Positions 1,206 through 57,680 of a DNA stretch of 64,000 nucleotides are shown one piece after another. How positions within the stretch are numbered: position 1 is the first letter of the stretch; each line of letters starts with the position of its first letter. The notes under the pieces were generated by a model. It had not been told where the DNA came from and did no database searches. It was given only the letters and a program-made list of their open reading frames with translations. This DNA is from Schmidtea polychroa (lineage: Eukaryota): positions 21,020,001 to 21,084,000 of the forward strand of contig CM097885.1 of assembly GCA_044892525.1 (NCBI GenBank), written 5' to 3'. Position numbers and translations under genes: made by a program.

Positions 1206-1739
1206 ATAAAAACACTTATATTTTATATTTTGGGATGTCTCGCATATGGGACAAATATAGTAGTTGATGCCAATCTATGACCGTAGTATTTTTTCATGGT
1301 CTTATGGCATAAATTGGAATGGCCTCTTGAAGATTGGCAATATTTGCGATATAATTTACCTGTTAACGAGAAATTATAAAAGATGGTGAAAAATATTATA
1401 ATCAATTGTTATTAGTTAGTCTATTTTTATCTTTATAAAAAAAAAAAGATTAACTAATAACCATTAAAAATAATAATCTATAATATTCGTTTTTTTTTTT
1501 CAAAGATAGTTGTAAACTACTTTGAACATTAATATAAGAAGAATATTTATTATTATTTATATTATTATTATTAATATTATTATTATTATTATTACTATAG
1601 TAGGTAGATAGTAGCCCGCGGGAAAAATTACCCCCCCCCCCGGGGGGGTTGTTCCCAACTTTTTATTACGCAATTGTTCCCAACTCATTTTTTTGCTTTC
1701 AGGGATTTTTGGTCCAAATTTTTTTTTATCACACTTATT

Positions 1740-2300
1740 TCGATGGTCCTGGGATTTTCAATACAAAAAATTTTTTTCAATACAAAAAGCTGGTCTACAC
1801 TAAAAAAGCCAAGGAATTTTCAGACTATAGTGAGGGGGTCTCGATGGTCCTGGGATTTTCAATACAAAAAATTTTTTTCAATACAAAAATCCGACTACCA
1901 CTAAAAAAGCATAGAATTTTCAGACTATAGTGAGGGGGTCTCGATGGTCCTGGGATTTTCTATACAAAAATCCGACTACCAATAAAAAAGCATGGAATTT
2001 TCAGACTATAGTGAGGGGGTCTCGATATTCCTGGGATTTTCAATACAAAAATCCGACTACCACTAAAAAAGCATGGAATTTTCAGACTATAGTGAGGGGG
2101 TCTCGATGGTCCTAGGATTTTCAATACAAAAAAAATTTTTCAATACAAAAAGCTGGTCTACACTAAAAAAGCATGGTAATTTAAGGTCTCAGGATATTTT
2201 CAATACAAAAATCTGACTACCACTATAAAAGCCAAGGATTTTTTCAGACTATAGTGAGGTGAGTCTCCTTGGTCCTGAGAAATAGGTGGTCTACACTAAA
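1740..2300 (+). repeat. Subterminal tandem array, ~81-100-bp unit (CAGACTATAGTGAGGGGGTCTCGATGGTCCTGGGATTTTCAATACAAAAA...)
   Basis: Units start at 1821, 1921, 2002 and 2083. Mirrored at ~13130-13610; larger versions at ~44685-45755 and ~60230-61240. Confidence 0.9.
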
Positions 2301-2304
2301 AACG

Positions 2305-3010
2305 TGGTAAATTTTTCAATTAAAGTAAATAATGGTCCAAATTTTTAAATTAAAGTAAATTATGGTTCTAAAAATTAAATTACAGTAAATTATGGCTCAA
2401 ATTTTTCAATTAAAGTAAATAATGGTTCTAAAAAAATTAAATTACAGTAAATTATGGCTCAAATTTTTGAAATACAGTAAATTATGGTCAAAATTTTTGA
2501 ATTACAGTAAATAATGGTCCAAAAATTAAATTAAAGTAAATTATGGTTCTAAAAAATTAAATTAAAGTAAATTATGGCTCAAATTTTTCAATTACACTAA
2601 ATAATGGTTCTAAAAATTGAATTTAAGTAAATAATGGTCTAAAAAAAATTAAATGAAAGTTAATTAAGGTCCAAATTTTTAAATTAAAGTAAATAATGGC
2701 TCAAATTTTTCAATTACAGTAAATTATGGTCCTAAAAAATTAAATTACAGTGAATTATGGTTCTAAAAATTAAATTAAAGTAAATAATGGTCCAAATTTT
2801 TAAATTAAAGTAAATTAAGGTTCTAAAAATTAAATTAAAGTAATTATGGTCCAAATTTTTCAATTACAGTAAATAATGGTTCTAAAAAATTAAATTACAG
2901 TAAATTATGGTTCTAAAAATTAAATTAAAGTAAATAATGGTCCAAATTTTTAAATTAAAGTAAATTAAGGTTCTAAAAATTAAATTAAAGTAATTATGGT
3001 CCAAATTTTT
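2305..3010 (+). repeat. ~30-bp tandem array (AAATTTTTCAATTA[A/C]AGTAAAT[A/T]ATGGT[C/T]C)
   Basis: More than 20 degenerate units. Mirrored at ~12340-13125; also at ~45760-46410 and ~59815-60225. Confidence 0.9.
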
Positions 3011-4140
3011 AGGTACTAACAACTAGTTACCTAATACTAAGTACCTACAACCACCTAACAAGTACTAACAACCAAAAACAAGCAACCAAACAGGTACCAG
3101 ATACCACCTACTAAGTACCAACAACCAACTAGTTACCAGATACCTACAACTAGATACTAACAACTAGATACCAAGTACCTACAACCACCAACCCATTAAC
3201 TAGCTACCAAGTACTAACAACCAGGTCTCAAACAACTAAATACTAACAACCAGTTACCAACTACTAAGCATTAATTACCTACAACTAGTTACTAACAACT
3301 AGATACCAAGTACTTACAACCAACATCAACCAAGTACTAAGCATCATCAACTAACTACTAAGTACCTACAACCTACAACTAGATACTAACAACCAGTTAC
3401 CTGCTACCAAGTACCTACAACTGGTACTAACAACCAACCAACTAGGTACTAGATACCAACTACTTACAACCAACATCAACCAGGTACTAAGCATTATCAA
3501 CCAACTAAATACTAAGTACTAACAACCAACCGACTAGGTACTAGATACCAAGTACTCACAACCTACAACAACCAGGTACTAAGCATTAATTACCAACTAC
3601 TAAGTACCTACAACCTACAACTAGATACTAACAACCAGTTACCTGATACCAAATACTTACAACTAGATACCAAGTACTATCAACCAAAAACCACCAACCA
3701 ACTAGGTACTAGATACCAAGTACTCACAACCGACAACAACCAGTTACTAAGCATTATTAACCAACTACTAAGTACCTACAACCAACTAGCTACCATCTAC
3801 CATGTACTAACAACCGACAACAACCAGGTACTAAGCATTAATTACCTACAACTGGTACTAACAACCAACCAACTAGGTACTAGATACCAAGTACTCACAA
3901 GCGACAACAACCAAGTACTAAGCATTATTAACCAACTACTAAGTACCTACAACCAACTAACAACCACCTACCAAGTACTAACAACCAGTTACCAACTACT
4001 AAGCACCTACAACCACCTACAAAGTACATACAACCAACATCAACCAGGTACTAAGCATTATCAACCAAGTACTAACAACCAAGTAACTTACCTAGTACTA
4101 AGCACTGTCAACTAGATACCAAACACTTACAACCAGATGA
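3011..4140 (+). repeat. Strand-biased modular repeat (A/C-rich on +), built from words such as CAACTAGATAC, CAAGTACT, AACAACC, ACTAAGC
   Basis: Visible directly. Mirrored at ~10695-12060; also at ~46750-48355 and ~58320-59470. Confidence 0.85.
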
Positions 4141-4478
4141 CCACATGAAATTATTGGTTAAATATGAAAATAAGGGTTATATTTAGTTGTTAAGTAAATT
4201 ATGGTGTAAAATTAAGTAATAAAGCATAAATAGGTAAATTAAGGATAAGTAAATTAAAGTTAAAAAATTAAATTAAAGTTAATTAAGGTCCAAATTTTAA
4301 AAATAAGTAATCAATGTTCTAAAAAATTAAATTAAAGTTAAATAAGTAAATTAAAGTAATAATTTTTAAATAAGTAATGTAATATGAAAATTAAAGTAAG
4401 ATTTTTAAATTTATTATCAAAAGATTGAATAACCACCAACTTTTTTGAGAAATGTAATTTTTAATGAAAATTTAAATG

Positions 4479-4534
<56 letters not shown>

Positions 4535-5934
4535 TTAATAATAATTATAATAATAATTAAACAGTTACCAACAATCGGTTACTGATTATTTTTAACTAGG
4601 TGCTAACAAATACTTTCAACATGATACCACGTACTAACTAACTCTCAAACAACCACATACTTACAACTAACTACTTACAATCAACTAAATATTCTTCATT
4701 GTATTTTATGAAATGATTTTTAAATTAATTTTTTATCTATCTTCAAAAATATATTTAATTACAATCAGTAGAAAAACCTTTTCAAATTTAACAAAAAATG
4801 TTGATTTTCATCAAAAAACCACAACTCAACCACTTTAAAACACCACGTGAAATTCAAAATAATTACAATGAAAGACTAATGAATTCTAATTCACAAAACA
4901 TTCTTCTTTTAATTGATAACTTATTATTGCAATGTAAAAATCGCATTCAATAAATACTTATTGTTGATCAGTTTTATTATATATACTCTGAGTTTATCCG
5001 ACAGGATGTTTTGACCCCCTAAGGGTACTGGTCGTAAGGGTACTGGTCGTAAGGGTATTGGTAACACTCAACCCCCCACCTACTCATTAATTAGTTACCA
5101 TGTACTAACAACTAGGTTTCAAACAACTAAATACTAAACACTAACAACCAACAACAACCAGGTACTAAGCATTATCAACCTACAACTATATAACAACAAT
5201 CAGTATACAACACTGTACCAACTACCAAATACAAGAAACCAACAACTTAGTACCAACAATCAACTAACAACACATAAAAATAATAGCAATTAAATAAAAA
5301 AATTATTCTTCATCGCATACACTATTTTCTTATCAAAATCTAAAAAGTCAACCAACTACTTACAACCAACAACTATGTACTAACAAATTGATCTTTAAAA
5401 GCAAATACTCATCACTTGAAAAAAATTAGATGAAAAATTAATTGAACTCAAGGCACTTTTAAGATATTTGAACTCAAGGCATCAATAACTTGGTAAAAAT
5501 TGATTAAATTATTGTAAAAATTTAAATTATTCAAAATATACTAAATTAAAAAAATATAATTAATGGACAAGAAAGAACTTTAAATTCTAGTCATTGATCA
5601 TTCAAGTTAATATGAATCAACTAAGATAATAAATTAATAAGAATTTTGAAATAAGATCTAGTAGATAATTGATTTAGATTGAATAAATTAATTTAAATAA
5701 AATTAAATTTAATTATTTTTGTAAAAGTAATACATGTACTCAAATTGATTGACTGATTTCTCAATATATTCAAAAAAATCAGTATAAATTCATTACAATT
5801 ATCAAAGTCAGCAATCTACAATAAAAATAATTATCATTAAATTCCAAAAGAGACTAGATAACTAATGATAACATCTAACAAACCAGTAAATTCATTTAAA
5901 TGACAATAATTGGTATATCCAAGTGAATTCTCCA

Positions 5935-6430
5935 ATAAAATCATCTAAAAAGAATCATTTTCCCCTAAATATATCAATATTTAAAGATTGGTATTTTAAT
6001 GATAAGTACTTGTTAAAGATCATATATTCACCTCAAACTAACAAGATTCCTTAAAATCCCCTTAAATGACTACATTTCTATCCTTAATTCATATTATTAC
6101 AAATATCATCTAAAAAGCATCAAATTTCATTGAAATAACACTATCTTTAAAGATTGATATTTTAATGATAAGTACCCTTAAAAGACTATATATTCACCTC
6201 AAACTAACAAGATTCCTTAAAATCTCTTAAATGACTATATTTCTACCCTTAATCCATATTATTACAAATATTTCACTAAAATCATCTAAAAAGCATCAAA
6301 TTTCCCTGAAATAACTATCTTTAAAGATTAGTATTTTATCGATAAATATCCTTAAAAGGTTATATATTTACCTCAGACTAATAAGATTGCTTAAAATCCC
6401 CTTTAAATGACTTTAATTCCTATTATCATG
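5935..6430 (+). repeat. ~170-bp tandem repeat x3 within the palindrome arm
   Basis: ATCATCTAAAAAG recurs at ~5940, ~6105 and ~6281; mirrored at ~8410-8895. Confidence 0.75.
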
Positions 6431-7539
6431 AATATTTCCCTATAAAACATGTAAAATAATTTGGTCATTAACCCTAGATAATTGATAAAATCTAATGATA
6501 AAACCGGTTATAATTAACTTTTTGTTAATCACTGTACTCGAAATTTAAAATAAATATAACTGACTAGGTCCCATTAAAAGATTAAATTTATCCATTCAAT
6601 AAAATATATTTCTTCAAATGATCATTTTACCGATATTCAACCGATTTAATTACTAATTAAAATCAATCGATAGATTTCTTTCAATAAAGATCAATTTTAT
6701 TTAGTCGATGTTTTAAGTCCATATTTCTAAACTTTTATCATTTTTGTAAATTTCTATTATTTTTGTGGATTTCTAACATTTTTGCAAATTTGATGTTTAT
6801 TGAATGAATATTTAATAATTTAATGCTAATTCTAAGATAAATTTAATTAATTTCTTGATAATTGGATGTATTTTTATTGACTTGTTTTTTTTAATTTTAA
6901 ATAAAAATTATTTTCAATGAGGTTAATAATTAGAGATTTTACAATAATGAAGTGATATGATAAATTTTTATGAGGATATTGAATAATTTTCTAAGAATTT
7001 CATGTTGACTGATAAATTTAATTGATAAATTTAATTAATTTCTTGATAATTAGTTGTATTTTATTGAATAGTTTCTAAATAAAAATTAATTTCATTGACA
7101 ATTAGGTTAATAATTAAGTGATTTTTGATGATAACTTTGTAATGTATTTGACTAAATAATTTTTTCAATAATTTACTCATTGATGAACTTTAAAAAACAT
7201 AAGCTAAGAAACCAGTTAACTTTAAATTTACATGAAAATGATTGTAGGATATACAGAAATTTAGTTTGCTTGAAAATGATTGGTTGAATCGATGAAGAAT
7301 TATGATCAAACAATATATATCATCTCCAGTATTTGATGGTAAATATTTGTAGAAAATATTGATTTTTGATCTTTTAGTGGGCTCTTATTATTTAGCTTCT
7401 AAATTATTTCAATGGAAGAATATTTGGTGTCTATAACAATTCATTTGTTTTTTTGAAGAATTCTTTAAGGATTTTAAGAGGATTGACTGAATTAAAGGAG
7501 GATTCAAGTGGGTAGAATTGAAGGATATATTTGGTTAGA

Positions 7540-7860
7540 TGTTTAAAGAGGTAGAAATATTTAATGAGAGATCGATTAAGATGGGAAAATATGATCTTTT
7601 AAGGGAGATATAGTCGGTTAGATTTAATGAAGGATGGGTTAAGATGGAAATAGATCATTGTAAGGGAGATATAGTCGATTGACTTTAATAAGAAATCGAT
7701 TAAGATGGGAATATATGATCTTTTGAGGGGATATAGTCGGTTAGATTTAATGAGAGATCAGATAAGGTGGGAATATATTATTGTAAGGGAGATATAGTCG
7801 GTTGCTTTTAATGAGGGAAGGGTTTCGATGGGAATATATGATTTTTTAAGGGTGATGTTG
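7540..7860 (+). repeat. ~60-bp purine-rich tandem repeat (TTTAATGAGAGATCG...GGGAATATATGATC...GATATAGTCGG)
   Basis: About 5 degenerate units; homologues at ~50950-51230 (-) and ~55030-55320 (+). Confidence 0.75.
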
Positions 7861-8090
7861 GTAAAATATCAATGTTTTTTAAGGAAATTGCAATACATTA
7901 GTCAGTTATGAATCAATAATAATTATATCGTTTTATTAGGTTGTGATTAATCCATTGTATATTAATTTAGATTTATGGATTATTAAGTAGGGATAATGAG
8001 CGATTTACTTGGTTTTGACAATGAAAACTTTACAGATAATTGGGATTGATATCAACTTTAAATTATTTTTATCTTTATTTAGACGGAGAA

Positions 8091-10296
8091 TGACAAAAGT
8101 TTAGAAATATGGACTTAAAACATCGATTAAATAAAATTGATCTTTATTGAAAGAAATCTATCGATTGATTTTAATTAGTAATTAAATCGGTTGAATATCG
8201 GTAAAATGATCATTTGAAGAAATATATTTTATTGAATGGATAAATTTAATCTTTTAATGGGACCTAGTCAGTTATATTTATTTTAAATTTCGAGTACAGT
8301 GATTAACAAAAAGTTAATTATAACCGGTTTTATCATTAGATTTTATCAATTATTTAGGGTTAATGACCAAATTATTTTACATGTTTTATAGGGAAATATT
8401 CATGATAATAGGAATTAAAGTCATTTAAAGGGGATTTTAAGCAATCTTATTAGTCTGAGGTAAATATATAACCTTTTAAGGATATTTATCGATAAAATAC
8501 TAATCTTTAAAGATAGTTATTTCAGGGAAATTTGATGCTTTTTAGATGATTTTAGTGAAATATTTGTAATAATATGGATTAAGGGTAGAAATATAGTCAT
8601 TTAAGAGATTTTAAGGAATCTTGTTAGTTTGAGGTGAATATATAGTCTTTTAAGGGTACTTATCATTAAAATATCAATCTTTAAAGATAGTGTTATTTCA
8701 ATGAAATTTGATGCTTTTTAGATGATATTTGTAATAATATGAATTAAGGATAGAAATGTAGTCATTTAAGGGGATTTTAAGGAATCTTGTTAGTTTGAGG
8801 TGAATATATGATCTTTAACAAGTACTTATCATTAAAATACCAATCTTTAAATATTGATATATTTAGGGGAAAATGATTCTTTTTAGATGATTTTATTGGA
8901 GAATTCACTTGGATATACCAATTATTGTCATTTAAATGAATTTACTGGTTTGTTAGATGTTATCATTAGTTATCTAGTCTCTTTTGGAATTTAATGATAA
9001 TTATTTTTATTGTAGATTGCTGACTTTGATAATTGTAATGAATTTATACTGATTTTTTTGAATATATTGAGAAATCAGTCAATCAATTTGAGTACATGTA
9101 TTACTTTTACAAAAATAATTAAATTTAATTTTATTTAAATTAATTTATTCAATCTAAATCAATTATCTACTAGATCTTATTTCAAAATTCTTATTAATTT
9201 ATTATCTTAGTTGATTCATATTAACTTGAATGATCAATGACTAGAATTTAAAGTTCTTTCTTGTCCATTAATTATATTTTTTTAATTTAGTATATTTTGA
9301 ATAATTTAAATTTTTACAATAATTTAATCAATTTTTACCAAGTTATTGATGCCTTGAGTTCAAATATCTTAAAAGTGCCTTGAGTTCAATTAATTTTTCA
9401 TCTAATTTTTTTCAAGTGATGAGTATTTGCTTTTAAAGATCAATTTGTTAGTACATAGTTGTTGGTTGTAAGTAGTTGGTTGACTTTTTAGATTTTGATA
9501 AGAAAATAGTGTATGCGATGAAGAATAATTTTTTTATTTAATTGCTATTATTTTTATGTGTTGTTAGTTGATTGTTGGTACTAAGTTGTTGGTTTCTTGT
9601 ATTTGGTAGTTGGTACAGTGTTGTATACTGATTGTTGTTATATAGTTGTAGGTTGATAATGCTTAGTACCTGGTTGTTGTTGGTTGTTAGTGTTTAGTAT
9701 TTAGTTGTTTGAAACCTAGTTGTTAGTACATGGTAACTAATTAATGAGTAGGTGGGGGGTTGAGTGTTACCAATACCCTTACGACCAGTACCCTTACGAC
9801 CAGTACCCTTAGGGGGTCAAAACATCCTGTCGGATAAACTCAGAGTATATATAATAAAACTGATCAACAATAAGTATTTATTGAATGCGATTTTTACATT
9901 GCAATAATAAGTTATCAATTAAAAGAAGAATGTTTTGTGAATTAGAATTCATTAGTCTTTCATTGTAATTATTTTGAATTTCACGTGGTGTTTTAAAGTG
10001 GTTGAGTTGTGGTTTTTTGATGAAAATCAACATTTTTTGTTAAATTTGAAAAGGTTTTTCTACTGATTGTAATTAAATATATTTTTGAAGATAGATAAAA
10101 AATTAATTTAAAAATCATTTCATAAAATACAATGAAGAATATTTAGTTGATTGTAAGTAGTTAGTTGTAAGTATGTGGTTGTTTGAGAGTTAGTTAGTAC
10201 GTGGTATCATGTTGAAAGTATTTGTTAGCACCTAGTTAAAAATAATCAGTAACCGATTGTTGGTAACTGTTTAATTATTATTATAATTATTATTAA

Positions 10297-10355
<59 letters not shown>

Positions 10356-13300
10356 CATTTAAATTTTCATTAAAAATTACATTTCTCAAAAAAGTTGGTG
10401 GTTATTCAATCTTTTGATAATAAATTTAAAAATCTTACTTTAATTTTCATATTACATTACTTATTTAAAAATTATTACTTTAATTTACTTATTTAACTTT
10501 AATTTAATTTTTTAGAACATTGATTACTTATTTTTAAAATTTGGACCTTAATTAACTTTAATTTAATTTTTTAACTTTAATTTACTTATCCTTAATTTAC
10601 CTATTTATGCTTTATTACTTAATTTTACACCATAATTTACTTAACAACTAAATATAACCCTTATTTTCATATTTAACCAATAATTTCATGTGGTCATCTG
10701 GTTGTAAGTGTTTGGTATCTAGTTGACAGTGCTTAGTACTAGGTAAGTTACTTGGTTGTTAGTACTTGGTTGATAATGCTTAGTACCTGGTTGATGTTGG
10801 TTGTATGTACTTTGTAGGTGGTTGTAGGTGCTTAGTAGTTGGTAACTGGTTGTTAGTACTTGGTAGGTGGTTGTTAGTTGGTTGTAGGTACTTAGTAGTT
10901 GGTTAATAATGCTTAGTACTTGGTTGTTGTCGCTTGTGAGTACTTGGTATCTAGTACCTAGTTGGTTGGTTGTTAGTACCAGTTGTAGGTAATTAATGCT
11001 TAGTACCTGGTTGTTGTCGGTTGTTAGTACATGGTAGATGGTAGCTAGTTGGTTGTAGGTACTTAGTAGTTGGTTAATAATGCTTAGTAACTGGTTGTTG
11101 TCGGTTGTGAGTACTTGGTATCTAGTACCTAGTTGGTTGGTGGTTTTTGGTTGATAGTACTTGGTATCTAGTTGTAAGTATTTGGTATCAGGTAACTGGT
11201 TGTTAGTATCTAGTTGTAGGTTGTAGGTACTTAGTAGTTGGTAATTAATGCTTAGTACCTGGTTGTTGTAGGTTGTGAGTACTTGGTATCTAGTACCTAG
11301 TCGGTTGGTTGTTAGTACTTAGTATTTAGTTGGTTGATAATGCTTAGTACCTGGTTGATGCTGGTTGTAAGTAGTTGGTATCTAGTACCTAGTTGGTTGG
11401 TTGTTAGTACCAGTTGTAGGTACTTGGTAGCAGGTAACTGGTTGTTAGTATCTAGTTGTAGGTTGTAGGTACTTAGTAGTTAGTTGATGATGCTTAGTAC
11501 TTGGTTGATGTTGGTTGTAAGTACTTGGTATCTAGTTGTTAGTAACTAGTTGTAGGTAATTAATGCTTAGTAGTTGGTAACTGGTTGTTAGTATTTAGTT
11601 GTTTGAGACCTGGTTGTTAGTACTTGGTAGCTAGTTAATGGGTTGGTGGTTGTAGGTACTTGGTATCTAGTTGTTAGTATCTAGTTGTAGGTATCTGGTA
11701 ACTAGTTGGTTGTTGGTACTTAGTAGGTGGTATCTGGTACCTGTTTGGTTGCTTGTTTTTGGTTGTTAGTACTTGTTAGGTGGTTGTAGGTACTTAGTAT
11801 CAGGTAACTAGTTGTTAGTACCTAGTTGTAGATACTTGGTATCTGGTAATTTGTTGTAGGTACTTGGTTGTTTTTGGTTGTTAGTACTTAGTAGTTGGTT
11901 GTAGGTACTTGGTAGGTGGTAGTTAGTTGTTAGCTAATTGTTGTGGGTTGTTAGTACTTGGTATCAGGTAACTGGTTGTTAGTAACTAGTTGTAGGTATC
12001 TGGTTGTAACTACATGTTCGTAAGTTACTGGTTGTTGGTACTAAGTTGTTGGTTTGTTGTTGAATTATTATTAAAATTTGTCTTTGAAAAATTATTTCAT
12101 AAAAATTTCCATTAAAAATTACCATTAAAAAATATTTCATAAAAATTTCAATTAAAAATTAACTTAAAAAATTATTTCATAAAAATTTTAATTAAAAAAT
12201 TTCAATTCTCAAACACCTATTATTTCAACTTTTTGTTAATAAATTTAAAAATCTTACTTTAATTTACTTATTACATTACTTATTTAAAAATTATTACTAT
12301 AATTTACTTATTTAAAATTTTTTACCATTGATTACTTAATTTAAAAATTTGGACCTTAATTAACTTTAATTTAATTTTTTAGAACCTTAATTTACTTTAA
12401 TTTAAAAATTTGGACCATTATTTACTGTAATTTAATTTTTAGAACCTTAATTTACTTTAATTGAAAAATTTGGACCATTATTTACTTTAATTGAAAAATT
12501 TGAACCATAATTTACTTATTTAGACCATAATTTACTTTAATTTAATTTTTTAGAACCATTATTTACTGTAATTGAAAAATTTGGACCATAATTACTTTAA
12601 TTTAATTTTTAGAACCTTAATTTACTTTAATTTAAAAATTTGGACCATTATTTACTTTAATTTAATTTTTAGAACCATAATTTACTGTAATTTAATTTTT
12701 TAGGACCATAATTTACTGTAATTGAAAAATTTGAGCCATTATTTACTTTAATTTAAAAATTTGGACCTTAATTAACTTTCATTTAATTTTTTTTAGACCA
12801 TTATTTACTTAAATTCAATTTTTAGAACCATTATTTAGTGTAATTGAAAAATTTGAGCCATAATTTACTTTAATTTAATTTTTTAGAACCATAATTTACT
12901 TTAATTTAATTTTTGGACCATTATTTACTGTAATTCAAAAATTTTGACCATAATTTACTGTAATTCAAAAATTTGAGCCATAATTTACTGTAATTTAATT
13001 TTTTAGAACCATTATTTACTTTAATTGAAAAATTTGAGCCATAATTTACTGTAATTTAATTTTTAGAACCATAATTTACTTAAATTTAAAAATTTGGACC
13101 ATTATTTACTTTAATTGAAAAATTTACCACGTTTTTAGTGTAGACCACCTATTTCTCAGGACCAAGGAGACTCACCTCACTATAGTCTGAAAAAATCCTT
13201 GGCTTTTTTAGTGGTAGTCAGATTTTTGTATTGAAAATATCCTGAGACCTTAAATTACCATGCTTTTTTAGTGTAGACCAGCTTTTTGTATTGAAAAATT

Positions 13301-13739
13301 TTTTTTGTATTGAAAATCCTAGGACCATCGAGACCCCCTCACTATAGTCGGAAAATTCCATGCTTTTTTAGTGGTAGTCGGATTTTTGTATTGAAAATCC
13401 CAGGACCATCGAGACCCCCTCACTATAGTCTGAAAATTCCATGCTTTTTTATTGGTAGTCGGATTTTTGTATAGAAAATCCCAGGACCATCGAGACCCCC
13501 TCACTATAGTCTGAAAATTCTATGCTTTTTTAGTGGTAGTCGGATTTTTGTATTGAAAAAAATTTTTTGTATTGAAAATCCCAGGACCATCGAGACCCCC
13601 TCACTATAGTGTGATAAAAAAAAATTTGGACCAAAAATCCCTGAAAGCAAAAAAATGAGTTGGGAACAATTGCGTAATAAAAAGTTGGGAACAACAGGGG
13701 GGGGGGGTAATTGTTCCCGCGGGCTACTATCTACCTACT
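8091..13739 (-). repeat. Right arm of the element A inverted repeat
   Basis: Reverse complement of 1599..6740. The spacer 6741-8090 is homologous to ~54260-55610 of element B. Confidence 0.9.
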
Positions 13740-18214: not shown

Positions 18215-19134
18215 CTACTTTACGAAAATGTAATGTCAAATGAGTTTTTGAACCTTTTGGAAAGTTTATAAGTTTTCCACTATCATCACGAATATTTATT
18301 TCTATATTGTTTATACATGAACTTGCTATTGGTAAATACATGGGATTATCGATATTTATATTGACAACTTCATCATGTTCATATTTTCCAATCCATACCG
18401 ATTTCAAAAGAGGAACACTGGAATCACCAACAATTATGGGTTCGATAATGTTAGTATATATGAACATTTGTTGATGATGTTCTAGTATTCTTGGTTTGCG
18501 TATACCAGTCGATTTTTCTCGATATTTTTGCCTATCTAATCCAAGTGAATTTGCCAAATTTTTATCAAATGTAACTTCGCAAATATCCTCATTCAAACTG
18601 AAGGTAAACATCAAATCTTTCACAATTTCCAAATTTTTAAATATGTGTGAACAATTGAACTTTAAATATTTAAGTAAATCATCAAGTTTATCAAAATATA
18701 ATTCATCAGCAAAGGTAAATGATTCTTCAACTTCATCATTATACGACACAGATATTTTGATTTCTTCTTTCATTACACTGTTTGCTTCAAATAGATTAAA
18801 ACGTAATAAATACTCGGTCTCCGTAACAATATTTTTCAACTTATTGCAACCCATTCGTTTGGCATCTTCAATAATTACTAATAATAAAGATACCGCTACA
18901 TGTTTTCACAATATTCCTTTTGAAATCAATCTTACATTGACTATAAAATGGGAATGTGTTGTACACGAATGTAAAATCTTGCAGTGCAACTTCCCAGTCA
19001 CCATTTAAAGAAATCGGATTCTGGAGATTGACCATAAATTTACTGGCTTGATTGTCTGGATGAATTAATGGGCAACTATTGCTCGGTAAAATAGTATAAA
19101 AAATCACTTTACTAGGTCTTTTGCTGATATCCAT
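18201..19134 (-). CDS. Polinton minor capsid protein (penton-like, PX), split over two frames by a probable intron or frameshift
   Basis: N-terminal FYTILPSNS...PISLNGDWEVAL; C-terminal MFIYTNIIEPIIVGDSSVPLLK...NIEINIRDDSGKLINF...LTLHFRK. Confidence 0.85.
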
Positions 19135-19733
19135 GACGGGTTTTGATAACCATGCCATTTGACATAGTATTGTTTATCCTTACCTACCTTTTTAGTTTTC
19201 AATATTTTTTGAATTCTAAATACTTTTGGAGGAGGAATGACTTGTAATTCCTGCTCATAAAATTTCCCTTGTACAATATTATTATCACTGTCTTTGATGA
19301 CATACATTACAGGATTCTGTTTAGTATTTATTTTTGAAATTACAAAGACTTCATCACTCCAATTTGTATCGAAATTTTTAATAAATGGTGATGCACTAAT
19401 TTTACTAATTCTAACATGGTCACCGACTTTATATTTAGGTTTTGCAATTTTTACAGATTTCTTAGAATAGAATGTTTTTGATGTAATATCAACCGGTCTC
19501 AATCCATCCAGTCCTCGATGTGATGAATGATTATAACTTGTTATTATTTTCGGTAAAGCATTTACCCATTTTTTATTACCTTGATGCACGAACAATTTCT
19601 TTAATCGATCTCTCAATGTTCGATTAAATCTTTCAACGTGGGCAGCTTTGTATTGAGAATGTACCGAGTAGTGATTTATTTTCAGTTTATCGAGGATTTG
19701 CTTAACTTTACTATTGTAGAATTCTTTACCTAA

Positions 19734-19798
<65 letters not shown>

Positions 19799-20186
19799 CT
19801 AAATCTGTTTGCAAGTTATTAGGATGTCCATCTTTAAATAAAATATTAATTGCCTTGGACATTTCTTCTGCAGATTTTGCCTTGACCGGTATTGCTCGTG
19901 CAAACCTGCTGTATACATTAATACATGTTAAAATATATTTATTCCCATTGTTAATTTTCGAATAGGGTATCATCTCCATCAAATCCATTTGCCATAAATC
20001 GTCAATACCAAATGTTTTATACGCTCTTGTTGGAAATCTTTTCCGCATTGGTTTGTTCAAACTGTACGCAAGCTGATCTGATAACCACTTCTGGGTTTCT
20101 TTTTTCGAATTCGGAACTCTTTTGTTTAATTTTGCCACTCCACCGAAACCGGCTTCGTCTTCTGGGTTCATCCAAATCTTCTCCAT
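19104..20186 (-). CDS. Polinton retroviral-like DDE integrase with C-terminal chromodomain; one 69-nt intron (19730-19798)
   Basis: Motifs WQMDL, QTDLG^KEF and HVERFNRTL; chromodomain YYVKWHGY..PSWI. The poly-Ile run in the ORF track is an (ATT)n tract bounded by GT...TAG. Confidence 0.92.
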
Positions 20187-20787: not shown

Positions 20788-21414
20788 TCAACTTTGTTTA
20801 TAAACCATGGCACCTTTTGGGTTGAAAATATCTGTTTTTACTCGTAAATCATCGGGACATTGTTGTGTGAAATCAAGAAATATATATCCATGAGGTATTT
20901 TTGTAGCATCTTGAAATGCACTGATAAGAAAATTACGATTGTTAGGGTATGCTTGGCGTGCAAGAAAATAAATCACTGTTGCATCTCTAGGATTCTTGAA
21001 AATAACTAAATATTGTACATTTAAATTACGTGTTCGATGTGCCCCACCTTGATGAAATAGATTTTGTGTTATGAAAATAACTGTTACACCGACATGTCTG
21101 CTAATCTTTGTAAATAAATTATTAAAATCTTTTTCTTTATTAGCTTCTTGATACAAATCATCGATAATAATGACATCACCTTTCTTTAATCGGCTGGACC
21201 AGTTTTTATCGAATCCCTTTACTATTTTCATGTTTTTTAATTTACAGAAACTTGATTGAGTTAATCCATGTTCTTCTTCAGCACCCCTATGCCAATAAAT
21301 CCTGTTGAATTTTGATTTGAATAAATATGATTTTAGTAATTTACAAACAAATAATGTTTTTCCACTACCACTCGGACCAACGATTTGGTATACTGCATCA
21401 TTTCTTAATTCCAT
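20788..21414 (-). CDS. A32-like (FtsK/HerA) DNA-packaging ATPase
   Basis: Walker A GPSGSGKT, Walker B IIIDD, plus SRH..VTVIFITQN and FKNPRD. Confidence 0.93.
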   Translation of the reverse strand: MELRNDAVYQIVGPSGSGKTLFVCKLLKSYLFKSKFNRIYWHRGAEEEHGLTQSSFCKLKNMKIVKGFDKNWSSRLKKGDVIIIDDLYQEANKEKDFNNLFTKISRHVGVTVIFITQNLFHQGGAHRTRNLNVQYLVIFKNPRDATVIYFLARQAYPNNRNFLISAFQDATKIPHGYIFLDFTQQCPDDLRVKTDIFNPKGAMVYKQS

Positions 21415-21513: not shown

Positions 21514-21951
21514 ATGTTAGCAAATATAAATTATCGAGGAAATTTTGATGTAACAAATATGAGGTTCCCACCAGGAAAACCCCAGCAAATTATCGATAGA
21601 AGCGGGAAATACCCGATAATATTTTTCAAGACTGGTAAATGTAGAATCATGGGATGTAAGAAACCCTTGGATTTTAATAAATTACAATATCGAATAAATA
21701 ATATTAAAATCCAATCAATTACCGTTACTATGGATATGGGACATAGTATCAATTTATATAACATGTCGAAAAAATGTGATTGTATGTTTGAACCGGAATT
21801 TTTTCCCGCACTAAGACTAATAAAATATAACCCTTTATGTGTCAACGTGTTTGCTAGTGGAAAGGTTGTCATGCTGGGGTTGAGAAATTTGGAGTATAGA
21901 GAATTTGTTGACAATGTTCGAAATGAGATAATTTCATTGGTCAATTTCTAA
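21514..21951 (+). CDS. Divergent TATA-binding-protein-like protein
   Basis: Two TBP-repeat-like halves: IIFFKTGKCRIMGCK and FEPEFFPALRL...VNVFASGKVVMLG (compare TBP YEPELFPGL...LIFVSGKVVLTG). TATATAAAG about 25 nt upstream. Confidence 0.8.
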   Translation: MLANINYRGNFDVTNMRFPPGKPQQIIDRSGKYPIIFFKTGKCRIMGCKKPLDFNKLQYRINNIKIQSITVTMDMGHSINLYNMSKKCDCMFEPEFFPALRLIKYNPLCVNVFASGKVVMLGLRNLEYREFVDNVRNEIISLVNF

Positions 21952-23127: not shown

Positions 23128-23260
23128 TGTTATATTGAATAAATGTATTAGTCATATTTGTTTTTTCTCTTTATTAATTGCAACATTAATGCAAATGACA
23201 TGCAAATTTAACAAAGAAAATCTATAAACAAACTTATAATATAGTTTTAAAGTGTTAATA

Positions 23261-24169: not shown

Positions 24170-24362
24170 TTTTATAATAATTTTTAATATACTGCTTTAT
24201 TTATATTACTACTGAAATAACATATGTTCTGATTGGTTGATAGACTATAAAAATAGGAGTTTTGATTTGATACACCATTAAAACTAAATTCATATTGGTA
24301 TAATGAGTGTGTGCTAAAACTAATAATAATAATAATAATAATACCATTGCGAGTTGTTGAGC

Positions 24363-24433
24363 GTGAGCAGTACCCTTGTGAGCATTACCCATAGGGGGAC
24401 AAAATATTTTGTCGGATAAACTCGGAGTATATA
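24363..24433 (+). promoter_or_regulatory. Conserved cis motif shared between the Polinton and the palindromic elements (function unknown)
   Basis: ...TACCCATAGGGGGACAAAATATTTTGTCGGATAAACTCGGAGTATATA differs from 52367-52438 by 4 substitutions and 1 indel. Confidence 0.6.
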
Positions 24434-24699
24434 GATTAATACTAATACTAATAATAATAATAATTATATGACCTTGAAAATGGTCTCGGGAAAACGATAA
24501 TAACTTTGTCAATATTAATGATGATGATACCTTCAATAGCTCATTCGAAAGGTCTTGCACTAAGCTTTAAAATGAGCTATCGAACGATGAAATAAAATGA
24601 TTGAAACGACAACTTTTGGGCAAACGAAAACCAGGAGCCCGCTAGATCACTAATAATATTTTGAATAATAATAATAAAATAATAATATTTTTTTAAATA

Positions 24700-24931
24700 A
24701 TAATATGACCTTGATGAGTCATCACGATGAGTCATATGACCTTGAGAATGGTATTGATGAGTCATGGTCTTTGTTTAAATGACCTTGATGAGTCATATGT
24801 CTTTGTTTAAAATTTGACCTTGAAAAAAAATGTACTTTTAGACTTAGAAAATTTTTTTAAAATTTTCCGGCCAAGGGAGGGGGTATGTGATCTAGCGGGC
24901 TCCTGATCTAGCGGGCTCCAATCCATCTACT
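24700..24931 (-). repeat. Probable Polinton right terminal/TIR region
   Basis: Short repeats (TGACCTTGATGAGTCA; TGATCTAGCGGGCTCC x2) ending in CTACT. Predicted TSD CATGGT (24932-24937); the partner end is not in the window. Confidence 0.65.
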
Positions 24932-25596
24932 CATGGTACCTATACTTGTACATATAGTACTACATTCACATACGCAACTTTTGTGTTGAATTTTACAATA
25001 CAAGTGAATACTATCGGCCACTCTTTCTAATATTTGAAATGGTGATATTTTTATTGTTGGATTTGTTTAAATGAAGTAAAATAAGTATATATATGTAACA
25101 CTAAATAGAGAACAATGAAGAATCAGAGGTACGCGGAGCGATTATTTTAGAATGAATATATTTCCTACTTCATGTTATTGTAAAAGCATTCTGCCGATGA
25201 AAGTTCTCCCATAAAAAAGAGTATCATTGCCGATATTTATTGTCAGTTCTAGCTAGAAAGTAAAATTTATGCAGTCCTCCTTTCTATATGTAAACACGCA
25301 ATTTTCATGCAATTTCATGCAATGATTTCTAGTGAGTTTTATCATAAATTCATAAATTAAAGAATTCCATCTAGAGAGCTAATGCAAATTGGTCATATAA
25401 TTCAGATAAATTTGTATCTACAACAAAGTAAATTTTTTTATCAAAACTTTATTTATCAATGTATAAAGTGATGAATATTAATGAAATTGCTATGTTATAG
25501 TCGGAAAATTTTTAATTTGTATGAAATATATTATTCGCAGCAAAAAAGGCTTAAATTATCATTTAATTGTTTTATATTTATCAACATTATATTAAA

Positions 25597-26076
25597 TCTA
25601 ATATATAAAGATGAAAGTTTGTTACCCATAGAATTCCCTACCGTTGAATCTATGGTGCTGAAATTTTACATGTGACTATCATTTGACTCGGGACCACATC
25701 TAGAGGTTGTCCGGTCAGCAATTTACCATATAAATAATAATTTATATGCTTGCTACTTACAGTTGAAAATAATATAATTTAGTCAAAAGTTTTCAAAGCA
25801 GAATTCAAACATGGAGAATTTGAATTTTATTTGATTAGTGAACCAGTTTGCAATTGGAAAAATATTGTCAGTTATTTTTCGATTAAAATTGGAGTGTGTT
25901 TTCGATTTAAGAAATTGAAATTGATTTTAAAAGCTTTTCTTATTGTGAATTAAACATGGAATTGAAGATGTTATAAAATTAATACTGGACCGTAATAACA
26001 TCATTAAACAAAAAATTAATTTAAATGAATTATTATAATAAATGTAAACTCGGGCGAAGCCGGGTACAACAGCTAG
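25597..26076 (+). mobile_element. Non-autonomous Helitron
   Basis: A|TCTAATATATAAAG 5' end; 3' hairpin ACTCGGGCGAAGCCGGGT followed by CTAG|T; no TSD. Confidence 0.7.
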
Positions 26077-44575: not shown

Positions 44576-47500
44576 AGTAGGTAGATAGTAGCCTACGGCA
44601 GCAATGACCCCCCCCCCGGGGGGGGGGGGGGGGGGTTCTGCTGCCGTAATTTTTTTGCTGCAACTTTTGATTACGCAATTTTTCACACTATAGTGAGGGG
44701 GTCTCGATGGTCCTGGGATTTTCAATACAAAAAAATTTTTTCTATACAAAAACGATGGTCCTGGGATTTTCAATACAAAAAAAATTTTTCTATACAAAAA
44801 TCCGACTACCACTAAAAAAGCATGGAATTTTCAGACTATAGTGAGGGGGTCTCGATGGTCCTGGGATTTTCAATACAAAAAATTTTTTTCTATACAAAAA
44901 TCCTACTATCAATAAAAAAGCCAAGGATTTATCACGCTATAGTGAGGTGAGTCTCCTTGGTCCTGAGAAATAGGTGTTCTACACTAAAAACGTGGTAATT
45001 TAAGGTCTCGGGATATTTTCAATACAAAAAGCTGGTCTACACTAAAAAGCATGGTAATTTAAGGTCTCATGATATTTTCAATACAAAAAGGCGGTCTCAC
45101 TAAAAAAGCATGGAATTTTCAGACTATAGTGAGGGGGTCTCGATGGTCCTGGGATTTTCAATACAAAAAAAATTTTCTATACAAAAACGATGGTCCTAGG
45201 ATTTTCAATACAAATAAATTTTTTCAATACAAAAACGATGGTCCTGGGATTTTCAATACAAAAAATTTTTTTCAATACAAAAATCCGACTATCAATAAAA
45301 AAGCATGGAATTTTCAGACTATAGTGAGGGGGTCTCGATGGTCCTGGGATTTTCTATACAAAAATCCGACTATCAATAAAAAAGCATGGTAATTTAAGGT
45401 CTCAGGATATTTTCAATACAAAAAGCCGGTCTACACTAAAAAAGCCAAGGATTTTTCAGACTATAGTGAGGTGAGTCTCCTTGGTCCTGAGAAATAGTTG
45501 GTCTACACTAAAAAAAAACGTGGTAATTTAAGGTCTCAGGATATTTTCAATACAAAAATCCGACTACCACTAAAAAAGCCAAGGATTTTTCAGACTATAG
45601 TGAGGCGAGTCTTCAATAAAGAAGCATGGTAATTTAAGGTCTCAGGATATTTTCAATACAAAAAGCTGGTCTACACTAAAAAAGCCAAGGATTTTTCAGA
45701 CTATAGTGAGGTGAGTCTCCTTGGTCCTGAGAAATAGGTGGTCTACACTAAAAAACGTTGTAAATTTTTCAATTAAAGTAAATAATGGTTCTAAAAAATT
45801 AAATTATAGTAAATTATGGCTCAAATTTTTAAATTACAGTAAATTATGGTTCTAAAAATTAAATTAAAGTTAATTATGGCTCAAATTTTTAAATTACAGT
45901 AAATTATGGTCCTAAAAAAATAAATTACAGTAAATTATGGCTCAAATTTTTAAATTACAGTAAATTATGGTCCAAATTTTTAAATTACAGTAAATAATGG
46001 TTCTAAAAATTGAATTACAGTAAATAATGGTCCTAAAAAATTAAATTACAGTAAATTATGATCCAAATTTTTCAAATACAGTAAATTATGGTCCTAAAAA
46101 ATTAAATTACAGTAAATTATGGTCCAAATTTTTCTATTACAGTTAATTATGGTCCTAAAAAATTAAATTAAAGTAAATTATGGTTCTAAAAATTAAATTA
46201 AAGTAAATTATGGCTCAAATTTTTCAATTACAGTAAATAATGGTCCTAAAAAATTAAATTACAGTAAATTATGGTCTAAATTTTTAAATTAAAGTAAATT
46301 ATGGTCCTAAAAATTAAATTAAAGTAAATTATGGTTCTAAATTTTAAATTAAAGTAAATTAAGGTTCTAAAAAATTAAAATAAAGTAAATTAAGGTCCAA
46401 ATTTTAAATTAAGTAATCAATGGTAAAAAAATTTTAAATAAGTAAATTGAAGTAATAATTTTTAAATTAAGTAATCAATGGTAAAAAATTTTAAATAAGT
46501 AAATTAAAGTAAGATTTTAAAATTTAATTACAAAAAGTTGAAGGTGTTTGAGAATTGAAATTTTTTAATGAAAATTTTCAATGGTAATTTTTAATGAAAA
46601 TTTTTATGGAATATTTTTTTTAAGTAATTTTTAATGGAAATTTTTATGAAATATTTTTCAATGATAATTTTAGATGGAAATTTTTAAGATAATTTTTAAT
46701 GAAAATTTTTATGAAATATTTTTCAAAGACAAATTTTAATAATAATTCAACAACAAATCAACAACTTAGTACCAACAACCAGTAACTTACGAACATGTAT
46801 TACCAACCAGATACCTACAACCAGTTACCTGATACCAAGTACCAACAACCAAAAACATGCAACCAACTAGGTACCAAGTACTAACAACTAACTACCACCT
46901 ACCAAGTACCTACAACCAACTACTAAGTACTAACAACCAAAAACAACCAACTAGGTACTAGATACCAAGTACTTACAACAAACATCAACCAAGTACTTAC
47001 TACCAACTACCAAGTACTTACAACTAGTTACTAACAACTAGTTACCTGCTACCAAGTACTTACAATTAGTTACTAACAACCAGTTACCTGATACCAAGTA
47101 CCTACAACCAACTACTAAGTACTAACAACAAAAAACAACGAAGTACCTACAACAAATTACCAGATACCAAGTGCCTACAACTAGTTACTAACAACTAGTT
47201 ACCTGATACTAAGTACCTACAACCACCTAACAAGTACTAACAACCAAAAACAAGCAACCAAACAGGTATCAGATACCACCTACTAAGTACCAACAACCAA
47301 CTAGTTACCAGATACCTACAACTAGATACTAACAACTAGGTCTCAAACAACTAAATACTAACAACCAGGTACTAAGCATTAATTACCAACTACTAAGTAC
47401 CTACAACCTACAACTAGATACTAACAACCAGTTACCTGATACCAAGTACTAACAACCGTCAACAACCAGGTACTAAGCCTTATCAACCTACAACTAGTTA

Positions 47501-48651
47501 CTAACAACCAGTTACCAACTACTAAGCATTAATTACCTACAACTAGTTACTAACAACTAGATACCAAGTACATACAACCAGACACTAAGCATTATCAACC
47601 AAGTACTAACAACTAAATACTAAACACTAACAACCGACAATAACCAGGTACTAAGCATCATCAACCAACTACTAAGTACCTACAACTAGATACTAACAAC
47701 CAGTTACCCATTAACTAGCTACAACCAGCACTCAACTAGCTACCAACTACTAAGTACCTACAACCAACTAGCTACCACCTACCAAGTACTAACAACCAGT
47801 TACCAACTACTAAGCATTAATTACCTACAACTGGTTACTAACAACATGATACCAAGTACATACAACCAGACACTAAGCATTATCAACCAAGTACTAACAA
47901 CTAAATACTAAACACTAACAACCGACAATAACCAGGTACTAAGCATCATCAACCAACTAATAAGTACCTACAACTAGTTACTAACAACTAGATACCAAGT
48001 ACATACAACCAGACACTAAGCATTATCAACCAAGTACTAACAACTAAATACTAAACACTAACAACCGACAATAACCAGGTACTAAGCATCATCAACCAAC
48101 TACTAAGTACCTACAACTAGTTACTAACAACTAGATACCAAGTACATACAACCAACTAGCTACCAACTACCAAGTACTAACAACCAGTTACCAACTACTA
48201 AGCATTAATTACCTACAACTAGTTACTAACAACTAGATACCAAGTACATACAACCAACATCAACCAGGTACTAGATACCAAGTACTAACAACCAAGTAAC
48301 TTACCTAGTAATAAGCACTGTCAACTAGATACCAAACACTTACAACCAGATGACCACATGAAATTATTGGTTAAATATGAAAATAAGGGTTATAATTAGT
48401 TGTTAAGTAAATTATGGTGTAAAATTAAGAAATAAAGAATAATTAGGTAAATTAAAGTAATAATTTTTAAAAAAGTAAATTAAGGTTCAAATTTTAAATT
48501 AAATAAGTAAATTAAAGTAATAATTTTTAAATAATTAATGTACTAAGTAAATTAAACTAAGATTTTTAAATTTATTATCAAAAGATTGAATAACCACCAA
48601 CTTTTTTGAGAAATGTAATTTATAATGTAAATTTAAATGGAAATTTAAATG

Positions 48652-48687
<36 letters not shown>

Positions 48688-51600
48688 TACTAATAATAAT
48701 TCAACAGTTACCAACAATCGGTTACTAAATATTTTTAACTAGGTGCTGACAAATAAGTACCAAATACTTACAACATGATACCACGTACTAACTAACTCTC
48801 AAACAACCAGATACTTACAACTAGCTACTAAATATTCTTCACTGTATTTTATGAAATGCTTTTTAAATTTATTTTTTATCTATCTTCAAAAATATATTTA
48901 ATTACAATCATTAGAAAAACCTTTTCAAATTTAACAAAAATGATGATTTTCATCAAAAAACCACAACTCATCACCACGTGGAATTCAAAATAATTACAAT
49001 GAAAGACTAATGAATTCTAATTTACAAAACATTCTTCTTTTAAATGATAACTACTGACTTATTATTGCAAAGTAAAAATCGCATTCAATAAATACTTATT
49101 GTTGATCAGTTTTATTATATATACTCTGAGTTTATCCGACAGGATGTTTTGACCACCCGAAGGGTACAGGTCGTAAGGGTACTGGTCGTAAGGGTACTAG
49201 TCGTAGGGGTATTGGTAACACTCAACCCCCACCTACTCATTAATTAGTTACCATGTACTAACAACTAGGTTTCAAACAACTAAATACTAAGTACTAACAA
49301 CTAACAACAACCAGGTACTAGATACCAAGTACTAACAACCTACAACTATATAACAACAATCAGTAAACAACACTGTACCAACTACCAAATACAAGAAACC
49401 AACAACTTAGTACCAACAATCAACTAACAACACATAAAAATAATAGCAATTAAATAAAAAAAATTATTCTTCATCGCATACACTATTTTCTTATCAAAAT
49501 CTAAAAAGTCAACCAACTACTTACAACCAACAACTATGTACTAACAAATTGATCTTTAAAAGCAAATACTCATCACTTGAAAAATTAGATGGAAAATTAT
49601 TTGAACTCAAGGCATCAATAACTAGGTAAAATTTGATTAAATTATTGTAAAAATTTAAATTATTCAAAATAAATATCATAAAAATTTAATTAATGGACAG
49701 GAAAAAATTCTAATCATTAATCATCCAATAAATAAAAAAAATACTGATCATTCAAGTTGAATCAACTAAGATAATAAATTAATAAAAGTTTTGAAATAAG
49801 ATCTAGATTTAGATTAAATAAAATTAATTTTAATTATTTTTGTAAAAGTAATACATGTACTCAAATTGATTGACTGATTTCTCAATATATTCAAAAAATC
49901 TGTATGAATTCATTAAAATTATCAAAGTCAGCAATCTACAATAAAAATAATTATCATTAAATTCCAAAAGAGACTAGATAACTAATGATAACATCTAACA
50001 AACCAGTAAATTCATTCAAATGACAATAATTGGTATATCCAAGTGAATTCTCCAATAAAAGCATCTAAAAAGCATCATTTTCCCCCTAAATATATCAATA
50101 TTTAAAGATTGGTATTTTAATGATAAATACTTGTTAAAGATCATATATTCTCCTCAAACTAACAAGATTCCTTAAAATCCCTTAAATGACTATATTTCAA
50201 CCCTTAATTCATATTATTACAAATAATTCATTAAAATCATCTAAAAAGCATCATTTCCCCTAAATATATCAATATTTAAAGATTGATATTTTAATGATAA
50301 GTACCCGTAAAGGATCATATATTCCCCTCAGACTAATAAGATTCCTTAAAATCCCCTTTAAATGACTATAATTCTAACTTTAATTCGTATTATCACGAAT
50401 ATTTCCCTATAAAACATGTAAAATCATTAACCCTAAATAATTTATAAAATCTAATGATAAAACTGGTTATAATTAATTTTTTGTTTTTCACTGTACTCGA
50501 TATTTTAAATAAATATTACTACAATATAACTGACTAGGTCCCATTGAAAGATTAAATTTATCCATTCAATAAAATATATTTCTTCAAATGATCATTTTTA
50601 CCAATATTCAACCGATTTAATTACTAATTAAAATCAAGATTTCTTCCAATAAAGATCAATTTTATTTAGTCAATGTTTTAAGTCCATATTTCTCAACTTT
50701 TGTCGTTGTCCGTCTAAATAAAGATAAAAATAAATTAAAGTTGATATCAATCCCAATTATCTGTAAAGATTTCATTGTCAAAACCAAGTAAATCGATCAT
50801 TATCCCTACTTAATAAAACATTGTTCTAAATTAATTTACTGTGCATTAATCACAACCTAATAAAACGATATAATTATTATTGATTCATAACTGACTAATT
50901 GACATTTCCCTTAAAACAATGATATTTTACCAACATCACCATTAAAAAAATCATATATTCCCATCTTAACCCATCTCTCATTAAATTTAACCGACTATAT
51001 TCCAATCTTAACCCATCCTTCATTAAAGTCAATCGACTATATCTCCCTTACAATGATATATTCCCATCTTAACCCATCTCACATTAAATCTAACCGACTA
51101 TATCCCCTTAAAAGATCATATTTTCCCCATCTTAACCGATCACTCATTAAATCTCACCGACAATATCCCATCTTATCCGATCTCTCAGCAAATATTTCTA
51201 CCCTTTTAAACATCTATCCGATTATATCCCTTATTTTCCCTAAAGATTTCACCCACTTGAGCCCTTTAATATATATCAATCCTCTTAAAATCCTCAGAGA
51301 ACTTCAAAAATATGACTTTTAATTAATTGTTATAGAACCAGACAAATAATAAGAGCCCACTAAAAGATCAAAATTCACTAAATTTTCTACAAATATATAC
51401 CATCAAATACTGGAGATGATATATATTGATTGATCATAATTCTTCATCGATTCAGCCAATCATTTTCAAGCGCTATCAGCAAACTAAATTTCAGTATATT
51501 CTACAATCATTTTCAAGTAAATTTAAATTCCTTGTTAAAGTTAACTAGTTTCTTAGCTCATGTTTTTTAAAGTTCATCAATGAGTAAATATTCTTAGAAA

Positions 51601-57600: not shown

Positions 57601-57617
57601 CTGTTGAATTATTATTA

Positions 57618-57680
<63 letters not shown>

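Follow-up and report, generated by a model that had tools for sequence, protein, structure and literature searches.

Homologous termini and a shared subterminal cassette link two gene-less palindromes to a Polinton in Schmidtea polychroa

Introduction

How do very long transposable elements that carry no genes come to be replicated and inserted, and whose enzymes would they use? The question is raised by a 64,000-nt stretch of the genome of Schmidtea polychroa (GenBank assembly GCA_044892525.1, contig CM097885.1, positions 21,020,001 to 21,084,000 of the forward strand), hereafter the window, in which all coordinates are counted from the first base. The window is AT-rich, with a GC content mostly of 20 to 35%, and contains a cluster of virus-like open reading frames (ORFs) between two very long inverted-repeat elements, here called palindromes A and B. 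According to the original prediction, which was based on the bare sequence, the end of the Polinton to which the ORFs belong is homologous to the ends of the palindromes, the elements share integrase or terminal-protein recognition, and this Polinton family or a close relative is the helper of the palindromes. In the available text of the sources on which we draw, Polinton replication and excision are themselves treated as models without direct demonstration (PMC8097293, PMC2836005, PMC5499653). We compared the Polinton with both palindromes, asking what they share, where the shared sequence ends and which explanations can account for it.

Results

The ORF cluster belongs to a Polinton. The element with its putative right end at 24931 is a Polinton/Maverick, with pPolB, a double-jelly-roll capsid protein, an A32 ATPase and an rve-like integrase (Table 1). 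Residues 100-400 of pPolB align with a 1,191-aa PF03175 protein at 48% identity and 97% coverage (E 1e-73), and PF03175 is present in four of eight matches; the catalytic domain lies outside the window, and a search of the ESM Atlas with the visible piece returned unnamed clusters only. The capsid model was matched by Foldseek to an iridovirus capsid (E 4e-16) as well as to PBCV-1, Sputnik and mavirus, and the 407-aa ORF has 170 homologues, with an informative name in none of the 120 listed. Scores for both domains of the integrase-like ORF fall below the curated cut-offs (26.1 bits against 32.6 for rve), and a sequence search of the PDB gave no match to it; its positions 65, 126 and 185 we take to be DDE-like motifs. 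Within the integrase core, an (AAT)21 tract at 19730-19800 reads as an in-frame poly-Ile stretch, and, with GT and AG at its borders on the coding strand, the tract probably represents an intron filled by a microsatellite. An adenain-like protease was not matched among the 18 ORFs scanned and may lie left of the window. The visible Polinton ORFs are open and the family looks abundant. Upstream of 7 of the 11 ORFs checked, TATAAA[C/T] or GATAAAC occurs within 90 nt, at -33 to -60 for six of them, a count that has no chance control.

Table 1. Positions of the Polinton genes, termini, cassettes and palindromes in the window
Feature	Position	Strand	Remarks
pPolB, N-terminal part (401 aa visible)	3..1205	-	continues outside the window
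Palindrome A	1599..13739	.	gene-less; 12,141 nt, 89% self-paired, unpaired centre 6743-8088
A outer cassette, left arm, toward terminus	4967..5048	-	58/70 vs Polinton cassette
A outer cassette, right arm	9783..9864	+	
Major capsid protein, double jelly-roll, 407 aa	16626..17849	-	structure model pLDDT 90
RVE integrase-like ORF, chromodomain-like C-terminal part	19104..20186	-	rve E 1e-5, Chromo E 3e-4
A32-like packaging ATPase	20788..21414	-	Pox_A32 27.9 bits, cut-off 22.8
TBP-like ORF within Polinton	21514..21951	+	Pfam TBP E 2e-14; head-to-head with the ATPase
Shared subterminal cassette (Polinton)	24339..24446	+	degenerate 15-nt repeats, G-run, GTCGGATAAACTC box, TATATA end
Inverted internal copy, 17 nt of terminal block	24634..24650	+	
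Extended terminal homology block	24875..24931	-	41 aligned nt after skipping one 16-nt tandem unit
16-nt tandem duplication, 2.0 copies, 100%	24888..24919	.	in the Polinton end; absent from palindrome ends
Outer 21 nt of putative right Polinton terminus, starts AGTAG	24911..24931	-	A ends 17/21, B ends 15/21
CATGGT, candidate right copy of Polinton TSD	24932..24937	+	directly after 24931; left end outside the window
Palindrome B	44576..61376	.	gene-less; 16,801 nt, 97% self-paired, unpaired centre 53022-53381
B outer cassette, left arm	49105..49187	-	78% over 83 nt
B inner cassette, left arm, toward centre	52343..52443	+	87% over 103 nt (E 3e-29), core 65/70 vs Polinton cassette
B inner cassette, right arm	53961..54061	-	
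B outer cassette, right arm	57130..57211	+	57/70 vs Polinton cassette, 69/70 vs A outer

Contig depth supports, but does not prove, that 24931 is the right end of the Polinton element. Contigs from 4 of the 23 listed runs were aligned to 22700-25700; two runs, X1 and X2, come from one study, possibly the source of the assembly, and with X5 they represent two studies. Summed contig depth, which is not copy number, is 4e5, 2e5 and 9e4 (X1, X2 and X5) in the bin 24821-24921 and is flat at 248, 45 and 37 from 25124 on, and in all three runs the drop from the range of 1e5-1e6 falls in the bin that contains 24931. The Polinton end is barely covered in the fourth run, X9. Positions 24310-24473 were skipped in the contig alignment, so that the zero-depth bin 24316-24416 reflects the skipped repeat and is no finding. 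Runs X1 and X2 each have a single-copy contig with its start at 24907; on our inference that 31-mers set the contig breaks, the repeated sequence would stop between 24931 and 24936. Five shared flank bases are expected once per ~2,300 ends, which fits a very abundant Polinton family. Another high-depth repeat begins ~0.5 kb right of the Polinton end (25427-25700), and farther along an LTR-retrotransposon-type gag-pol occupies 26481-30640 on the forward strand, with several ORFs (zinc knuckle, RT, RNase H, integrase).

Both palindromes are flanked by target site duplications (TSDs) that are 6 bp long and free of mismatches. Palindrome A, which lies inside the Polinton between the pPolB and capsid ORFs, is bounded by TACTAT at 1593-1598 and 13740-13745, and in a paralogous target unit the hexamer is present once, unduplicated (14040-14045), which confirms the 6-bp duplication at A. 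Beside this insertion site a unit of ~300 nt is duplicated at 13740-14230, with an (ATT)n tract between the copies. Palindrome B is bounded by TGCATA at 44570-44575 and 61377-61382 and is inserted in a Penelope-like RT/GIY-YIG element; its target is a frame-consistent site, a test that fixes the duplication modulo 3 only. The retroelement split by B (43010-44575 and 61377-63019) retains RT/GIY-YIG pieces and has an inverted duplicate of its end of ~1.1 kb. Palindrome A has no ATG-initiated ORF of at least 70 aa, and in B there are three such ORFs of 89-107 aa, two of them within tandem arrays.

The arms of the palindromes have diverged to very different degrees. Those of A are 99.9% identical. 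In B the inner arms are 94-99% identical and the outer arms (48700-52100 against 54160-57700) 85% identical, no closer to each other than to A (85-86%), so that the arms of A and B, like the two outer arms of B, differ by ~15%. The unpaired centre of A (6743-8088) is homologous to a segment of the B arm (77-79%); a one-sided deletion therefore seems to have removed from A the centre that it once had, together with the inner cassettes.

The predicted match between Polinton and palindrome ends was reproduced exactly and exceeds chance. Read inward from 24931 to 24911, the Polinton end agrees with both ends of A (1599, forward; 13739, reverse) at 17 of 21 positions without gaps and with both ends of B (44576, forward; 61376, reverse) at 15 of 21. 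When the 21-mer of A is compared with both strands of the window, the Polinton end is the top match outside the four palindrome ends, with a runner-up at 15/21. A match of 17/21 was reached anywhere in the 35,058 non-palindrome bases in 2 of 300 dinucleotide shuffles; under an independence model, 0.002 such sites are expected in these bases and 2e-5 in the 762 nt past the last Polinton ORF.

By alignment, this homology is larger than the 21 nt first reported and stays in register to nt 41. After one 16-nt tandem unit is skipped, the Polinton end matches the palindrome ends at 30 (A-left), 31 (A-right), 27 (B-left) and 29 (B-right) of 41 positions, a score reached in 54 of 20,000 base shuffles. 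The skip of 16 was the optimum of 40 skips tested for all four ends and in each case equals the period of the tandem duplication, which had been found independently. Within the block, nt 1-18 do not vary among the four palindrome ends. The Polinton end differs from all of them at nt 6, 8, 12 and 14, and nt 1-5 and 15-18 are the same in all five ends. An exact copy of the palindrome-end 18-mer was also found at 12 loci in one metagenome scan, none with further similarity to the window; we rejected these loci as relatives and regard them as chance matches, the similarity being confined to the 18-mer. Scans of public viral contigs and of genome contigs found no relatives with DNA.

A second island of similarity lies ~0.5 kb inside the Polinton terminus and is oriented toward it. 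When six non-coding Polinton pieces were compared with A and B, this cassette was the sole match other than microsatellites. The Polinton segment 24339-24440 is 87% identical over 103 nt to a segment in both inner arms of B and 78-82% identical to segments in the outer arms of A and B, one per arm; of the seven occurrences of the cassette's 13-nt box in the window, six lie in the palindromes and one in the Polinton. Over a core of 70 nt, 65 positions agree between the Polinton and the inner cassette of B, and 57-58 agree when the outer cassettes are compared either with the Polinton or with the inner one; the inner cassette of B is thus nearer to that of the Polinton than to the palindromes' own outer cassette. 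The remainder of the window, 22 kb of non-element DNA, contains no copy (best E 0.036), and the 420 nt from the cassette to the terminal block have no similarity to A or B.

In all three contexts the similarity stops at TATATA, and the 150-nt flanks 3' of the cassette are only ~62-64% identical, except between the outer cassettes of A and B (140/150). With a TATA box at its limit and an orientation toward the terminus, the cassette looks like a promoter-type unit bound by protein, and judging from sequence features it is most likely an outward-facing element of this kind rather than an RNA gene. An RNA gene at or behind the cassette was considered and rejected: the window contains no Rfam match at the gathering level and no detected tRNA gene, 24200-24960 has no Rfam match at E<=1, and nothing stands out in how 24455-24625 folds (z -1.9; 11 of 200 shuffles). 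On one strand of the same region, TGACCTTGA, which we take to resemble a nuclear-receptor half-site, occurs five times (24469-24823) and nowhere else in the window. Near the centre of B, downstream of the inner cassette, 52790-52940 holds four repeats of 33-40 nt with a G-run, which have no match in the Polinton end.

Discussion

In our view A and B, which carry no genes, are probably foldback satellites that descend from and depend on the clade of this Polinton, a high-copy element with its probable right end at 24931. Most likely they are parasites that borrow the enzymes of its lineage. Two islands would have been retained from the ancestor, the terminal block of ~41 nt, which we propose as replication origin and integrase attachment site, and the TATA-ended cassette of ~70-100 nt. 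In the cycle that we envisage, pPolB of the helper would prime at the identical palindrome ends, the displaced strand would fold back over its full length and so regenerate a duplex origin, and the RVE integrase of the helper would insert the product with a 6-bp TSD. Fold-back may also homogenize the palindrome arms. Origin by snap-back template switching is known from other protein-primed systems. The idea of shared integrase or terminal-protein recognition has gained from the homology of the ends over the 41-nt register, from the second block formed by the cassette and from the 6-bp TSDs on both palindromes, and we regard it as supported.

Several observations weigh against this explanation. 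A fold-back cycle fits the arms of A and does not fit those of B, as a recent cycle of this type should leave no divergence such as that between the outer arms of B. The Pfam score of the integrase is below its cut-off, the similarity is interrupted for 420 nt between cassette and terminal block, and at 4 of its first 14 nt the Polinton end departs from every palindrome end. These four fixed differences also bear on the identity of the helper, for which the original prediction had named this family or a close relative. The palindrome ends are invariant over nt 1-18 even though the arms differ by ~15%, a pattern suggestive of selection for agreement with a helper that has precisely this end; taken together with the differences in the Polinton, this makes a sister family likelier than the present one. 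Our somewhat favored candidate for the main helper is accordingly a sister family that agrees with the palindromes at each of its first 18 nt, a narrower claim that we hold less firmly than descent from the clade, and we think it rather unlikely that the helper is now dead. A close relative is thus a plausible helper. That this very family does the work, a special case of the preferred explanation, is doubtful. Its integrase and pPolB would then have to tolerate the four differences, with recognition resting mostly on nt 1-5 and the AGCC/C-run block; in its favor, all five ends agree at nt 1-5 and 15-18, the inner cassette of B is close to that of the Polinton, the family is apparently abundant with its visible ORFs open, and A is nested in this very copy, which may reflect co-replication. 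Against this family stands the position of the differences, all within nt 1-14, where every palindrome end is invariant.

Further explanations depart from this reading. The Polinton family may have gained its end or cassette from a palindrome by recombination, or the cassette may have been captured independently by Polinton and palindromes from a host promoter, in which cases the shared sequence would be no proof of descent. The palindromes do hold the cassette in two versions and two orientations, and the visible Polinton end holds it once. Yet Polinton and palindromes have two separate blocks in common, including the very terminus, no copy of the cassette occurs in the non-element DNA of the window, and Polinton enzymes would still be needed because of the 6-bp TSDs; we regard these two scenarios, even jointly, as improbable. 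We give still less credence to a reading in which a DDE transposase from outside the Polintons moves the palindromes as common foldback DNA transposons, the Polinton-like ends being a relic. Their arms of tandem-repeat modules resemble Foldback-type elements, and the link of the palindromes to pPolB is indirect. However, the palindrome ends are kept invariant for 18 nt, and ends that begin with AG and 6-bp TSDs fit Mavericks as described in the available text (PMC8097293), and the integrase-related Ginger elements begin with TGTNR (PMC2836005). Chance, or convergence on a generic Polinton start, is scarcely credible as the source of the similarity. The AGTAG of the Polinton end makes up the first five of the six bases of the common Maverick motif (AGT)2 (PMC8097293), and the palindrome-end 18-mer recurs at 12 unrelated metagenome loci; but there are 12 more matches in nt 6-21, the alignment extends to nt 41, and the independent cassette block (E 3e-29) already contradicts such a reading.

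The terminal reiteration tells us less about the pairing of Polinton and palindromes than had been supposed. It had been argued that AGTAG-GTAG-ATAG-TAG would suit slide-back protein priming, and AG-T-AG is indeed common to all five ends. The argument was overstated, as the long reiteration is restricted to the palindromes; in the Polinton, three of the four mismatches (nt 8, 12 and 14) abolish it and leave AG-T-AG alone usable for jump-back. Judged from its sequence, this motif would allow a three-base jump of a dinucleotide primer. Backward translocation involving the first three to six terminal bases is described for phi29, PRD1, adenovirus and Bam35 (PMC5175343), and jump-back at Maverick end motifs has been proposed earlier in print (PMC8097293). 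The slide-back aspect is therefore neither new nor specific support for the pairing of the Polinton with the palindromes.

No account of gene-less, whole-length palindromic Polinton derivatives was found in our searches of the open-access literature. A phrase search of the same literature for non-autonomous Polintons or Mavericks led only to Tlr1, which encodes proteins (PMC5499653). The window presents whole-length palindromes of 12-17 kb that are tied to Polintons by sequence, beyond TSD length alone. A gene-less parasite reduced to two short islands amounts to a natural deletion experiment, and the 41-nt end block and the cassette of ~70 nt become candidate cis-signals of Polintons. Tentatively, and as a reading that we consider rather unlikely, we raise that polintoviruses have heritable satellite viruses of the snap-back type and that A and B, with gene-less hairpin genomes, are such viruses. 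If so, the stuffing with repeats would keep the satellites near the helper's genome length for packaging, which is speculation; the end block, together with a cassette multiplied to two to four copies per element, would mark the minimal cis-signals that a Polinton needs to replicate, to integrate and perhaps to be packaged; surplus cassettes would vie for factors of the helper, for example the TBP of the Polinton; and the satellites would act as defective-interfering brakes on a genome-expanding virus.

Among the known systems close to A and B are the non-autonomous Polinton derivatives of the Repbase type, which are gene-less internal-deletion copies with Polinton ends, short terminal inverted repeats (TIRs) and 6-bp TSDs, mobilized by a helper in trans. 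A and B resemble them in having no genes, Polinton-like ends and 6-bp TSDs, and with respect to the features of such derivatives they have a 6-bp TSD, termini homologous to a resident Polinton and no coding capacity; the only Polinton end available for a comparison of identical ends differs at 4 of the first 18 nt. Unlike those derivatives, they are 89-97% self-complementary and close in length to a full genome, and what they have in common with the visible Polinton is limited to two short islands. Snap-back or copy-back defective genomes, as in adenovirus and phi29, have both ends from one terminus, are self-complementary, helper-dependent and transient, and retain helper sequence. A and B, in contrast, are insertions flanked by TSDs, belong to a family that has diverged and carry a filling of their own tandem repeats. 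Foldback transposons of the Drosophila FB type have long modular inverted arms of tandem repeats with a short loop; they differ from A and B in their termini and TSD length and have no known Polinton link. An assignment to Ginger1 or Ginger2 was rejected, since the ends start with AGTAG and not with the TGTNR given for these elements (PMC2836005).

Tlr1 and the transpovirons, which encode proteins such as an SF1 helicase, are described as offshoots of the Polinton supergroup that consist of linear dsDNA bounded by terminal inverted repeats; Tlr1 is called a non-autonomous polinton, and transpovirons travel in the particles of their helper (PMC5499653). By comparison with this description, A and B are protein-less and palindromic over their whole length. 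The terminal palindromes of 52 nt in the available text of a Halocafeteria preprint are a different thing, and the available text of the Pannagram preprint reports gene-containing TIRs of 2 kb and does not contain the word stem "palindrom". Likewise, the available part of a report on Maverick expansion in Dugesia does not use the word palindrome (10.64898/2025.12.11.693146).

Mavericks themselves, according to the available text, have reiterated ends that start with AG, 6-bp TSDs, a size of 12.7-24.6 kb, for which a capsid-related constraint has been suggested, and TIRs of 46-1,447 bp (PMC8097293). The neighboring element has pPolB, an A32 ATPase and a double-jelly-roll capsid in common with Mavericks, resembles them in an RVE integrase-like ORF that scores below the cut-offs and in an AG-starting end that matches five of the six bases of (AGT)2, and differs from the Mavericks compared in its TBP-like gene. 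Its end, AGTAGA or AGTAGG when the palindromes are included, is unlike the (AGT)2 or (AG)3 given for Mavericks (PMC8097293). In contrast to Maverick TIRs, the arms of the palindromes reach ~5.1-5.7 kb (A) and 8 kb (B), and the palindromes are devoid of genes; they share the 6-bp TSD with Mavericks, and in size B (16.8 kb) lies within the Maverick range and A (12.1 kb) close to it (PMC8097293).
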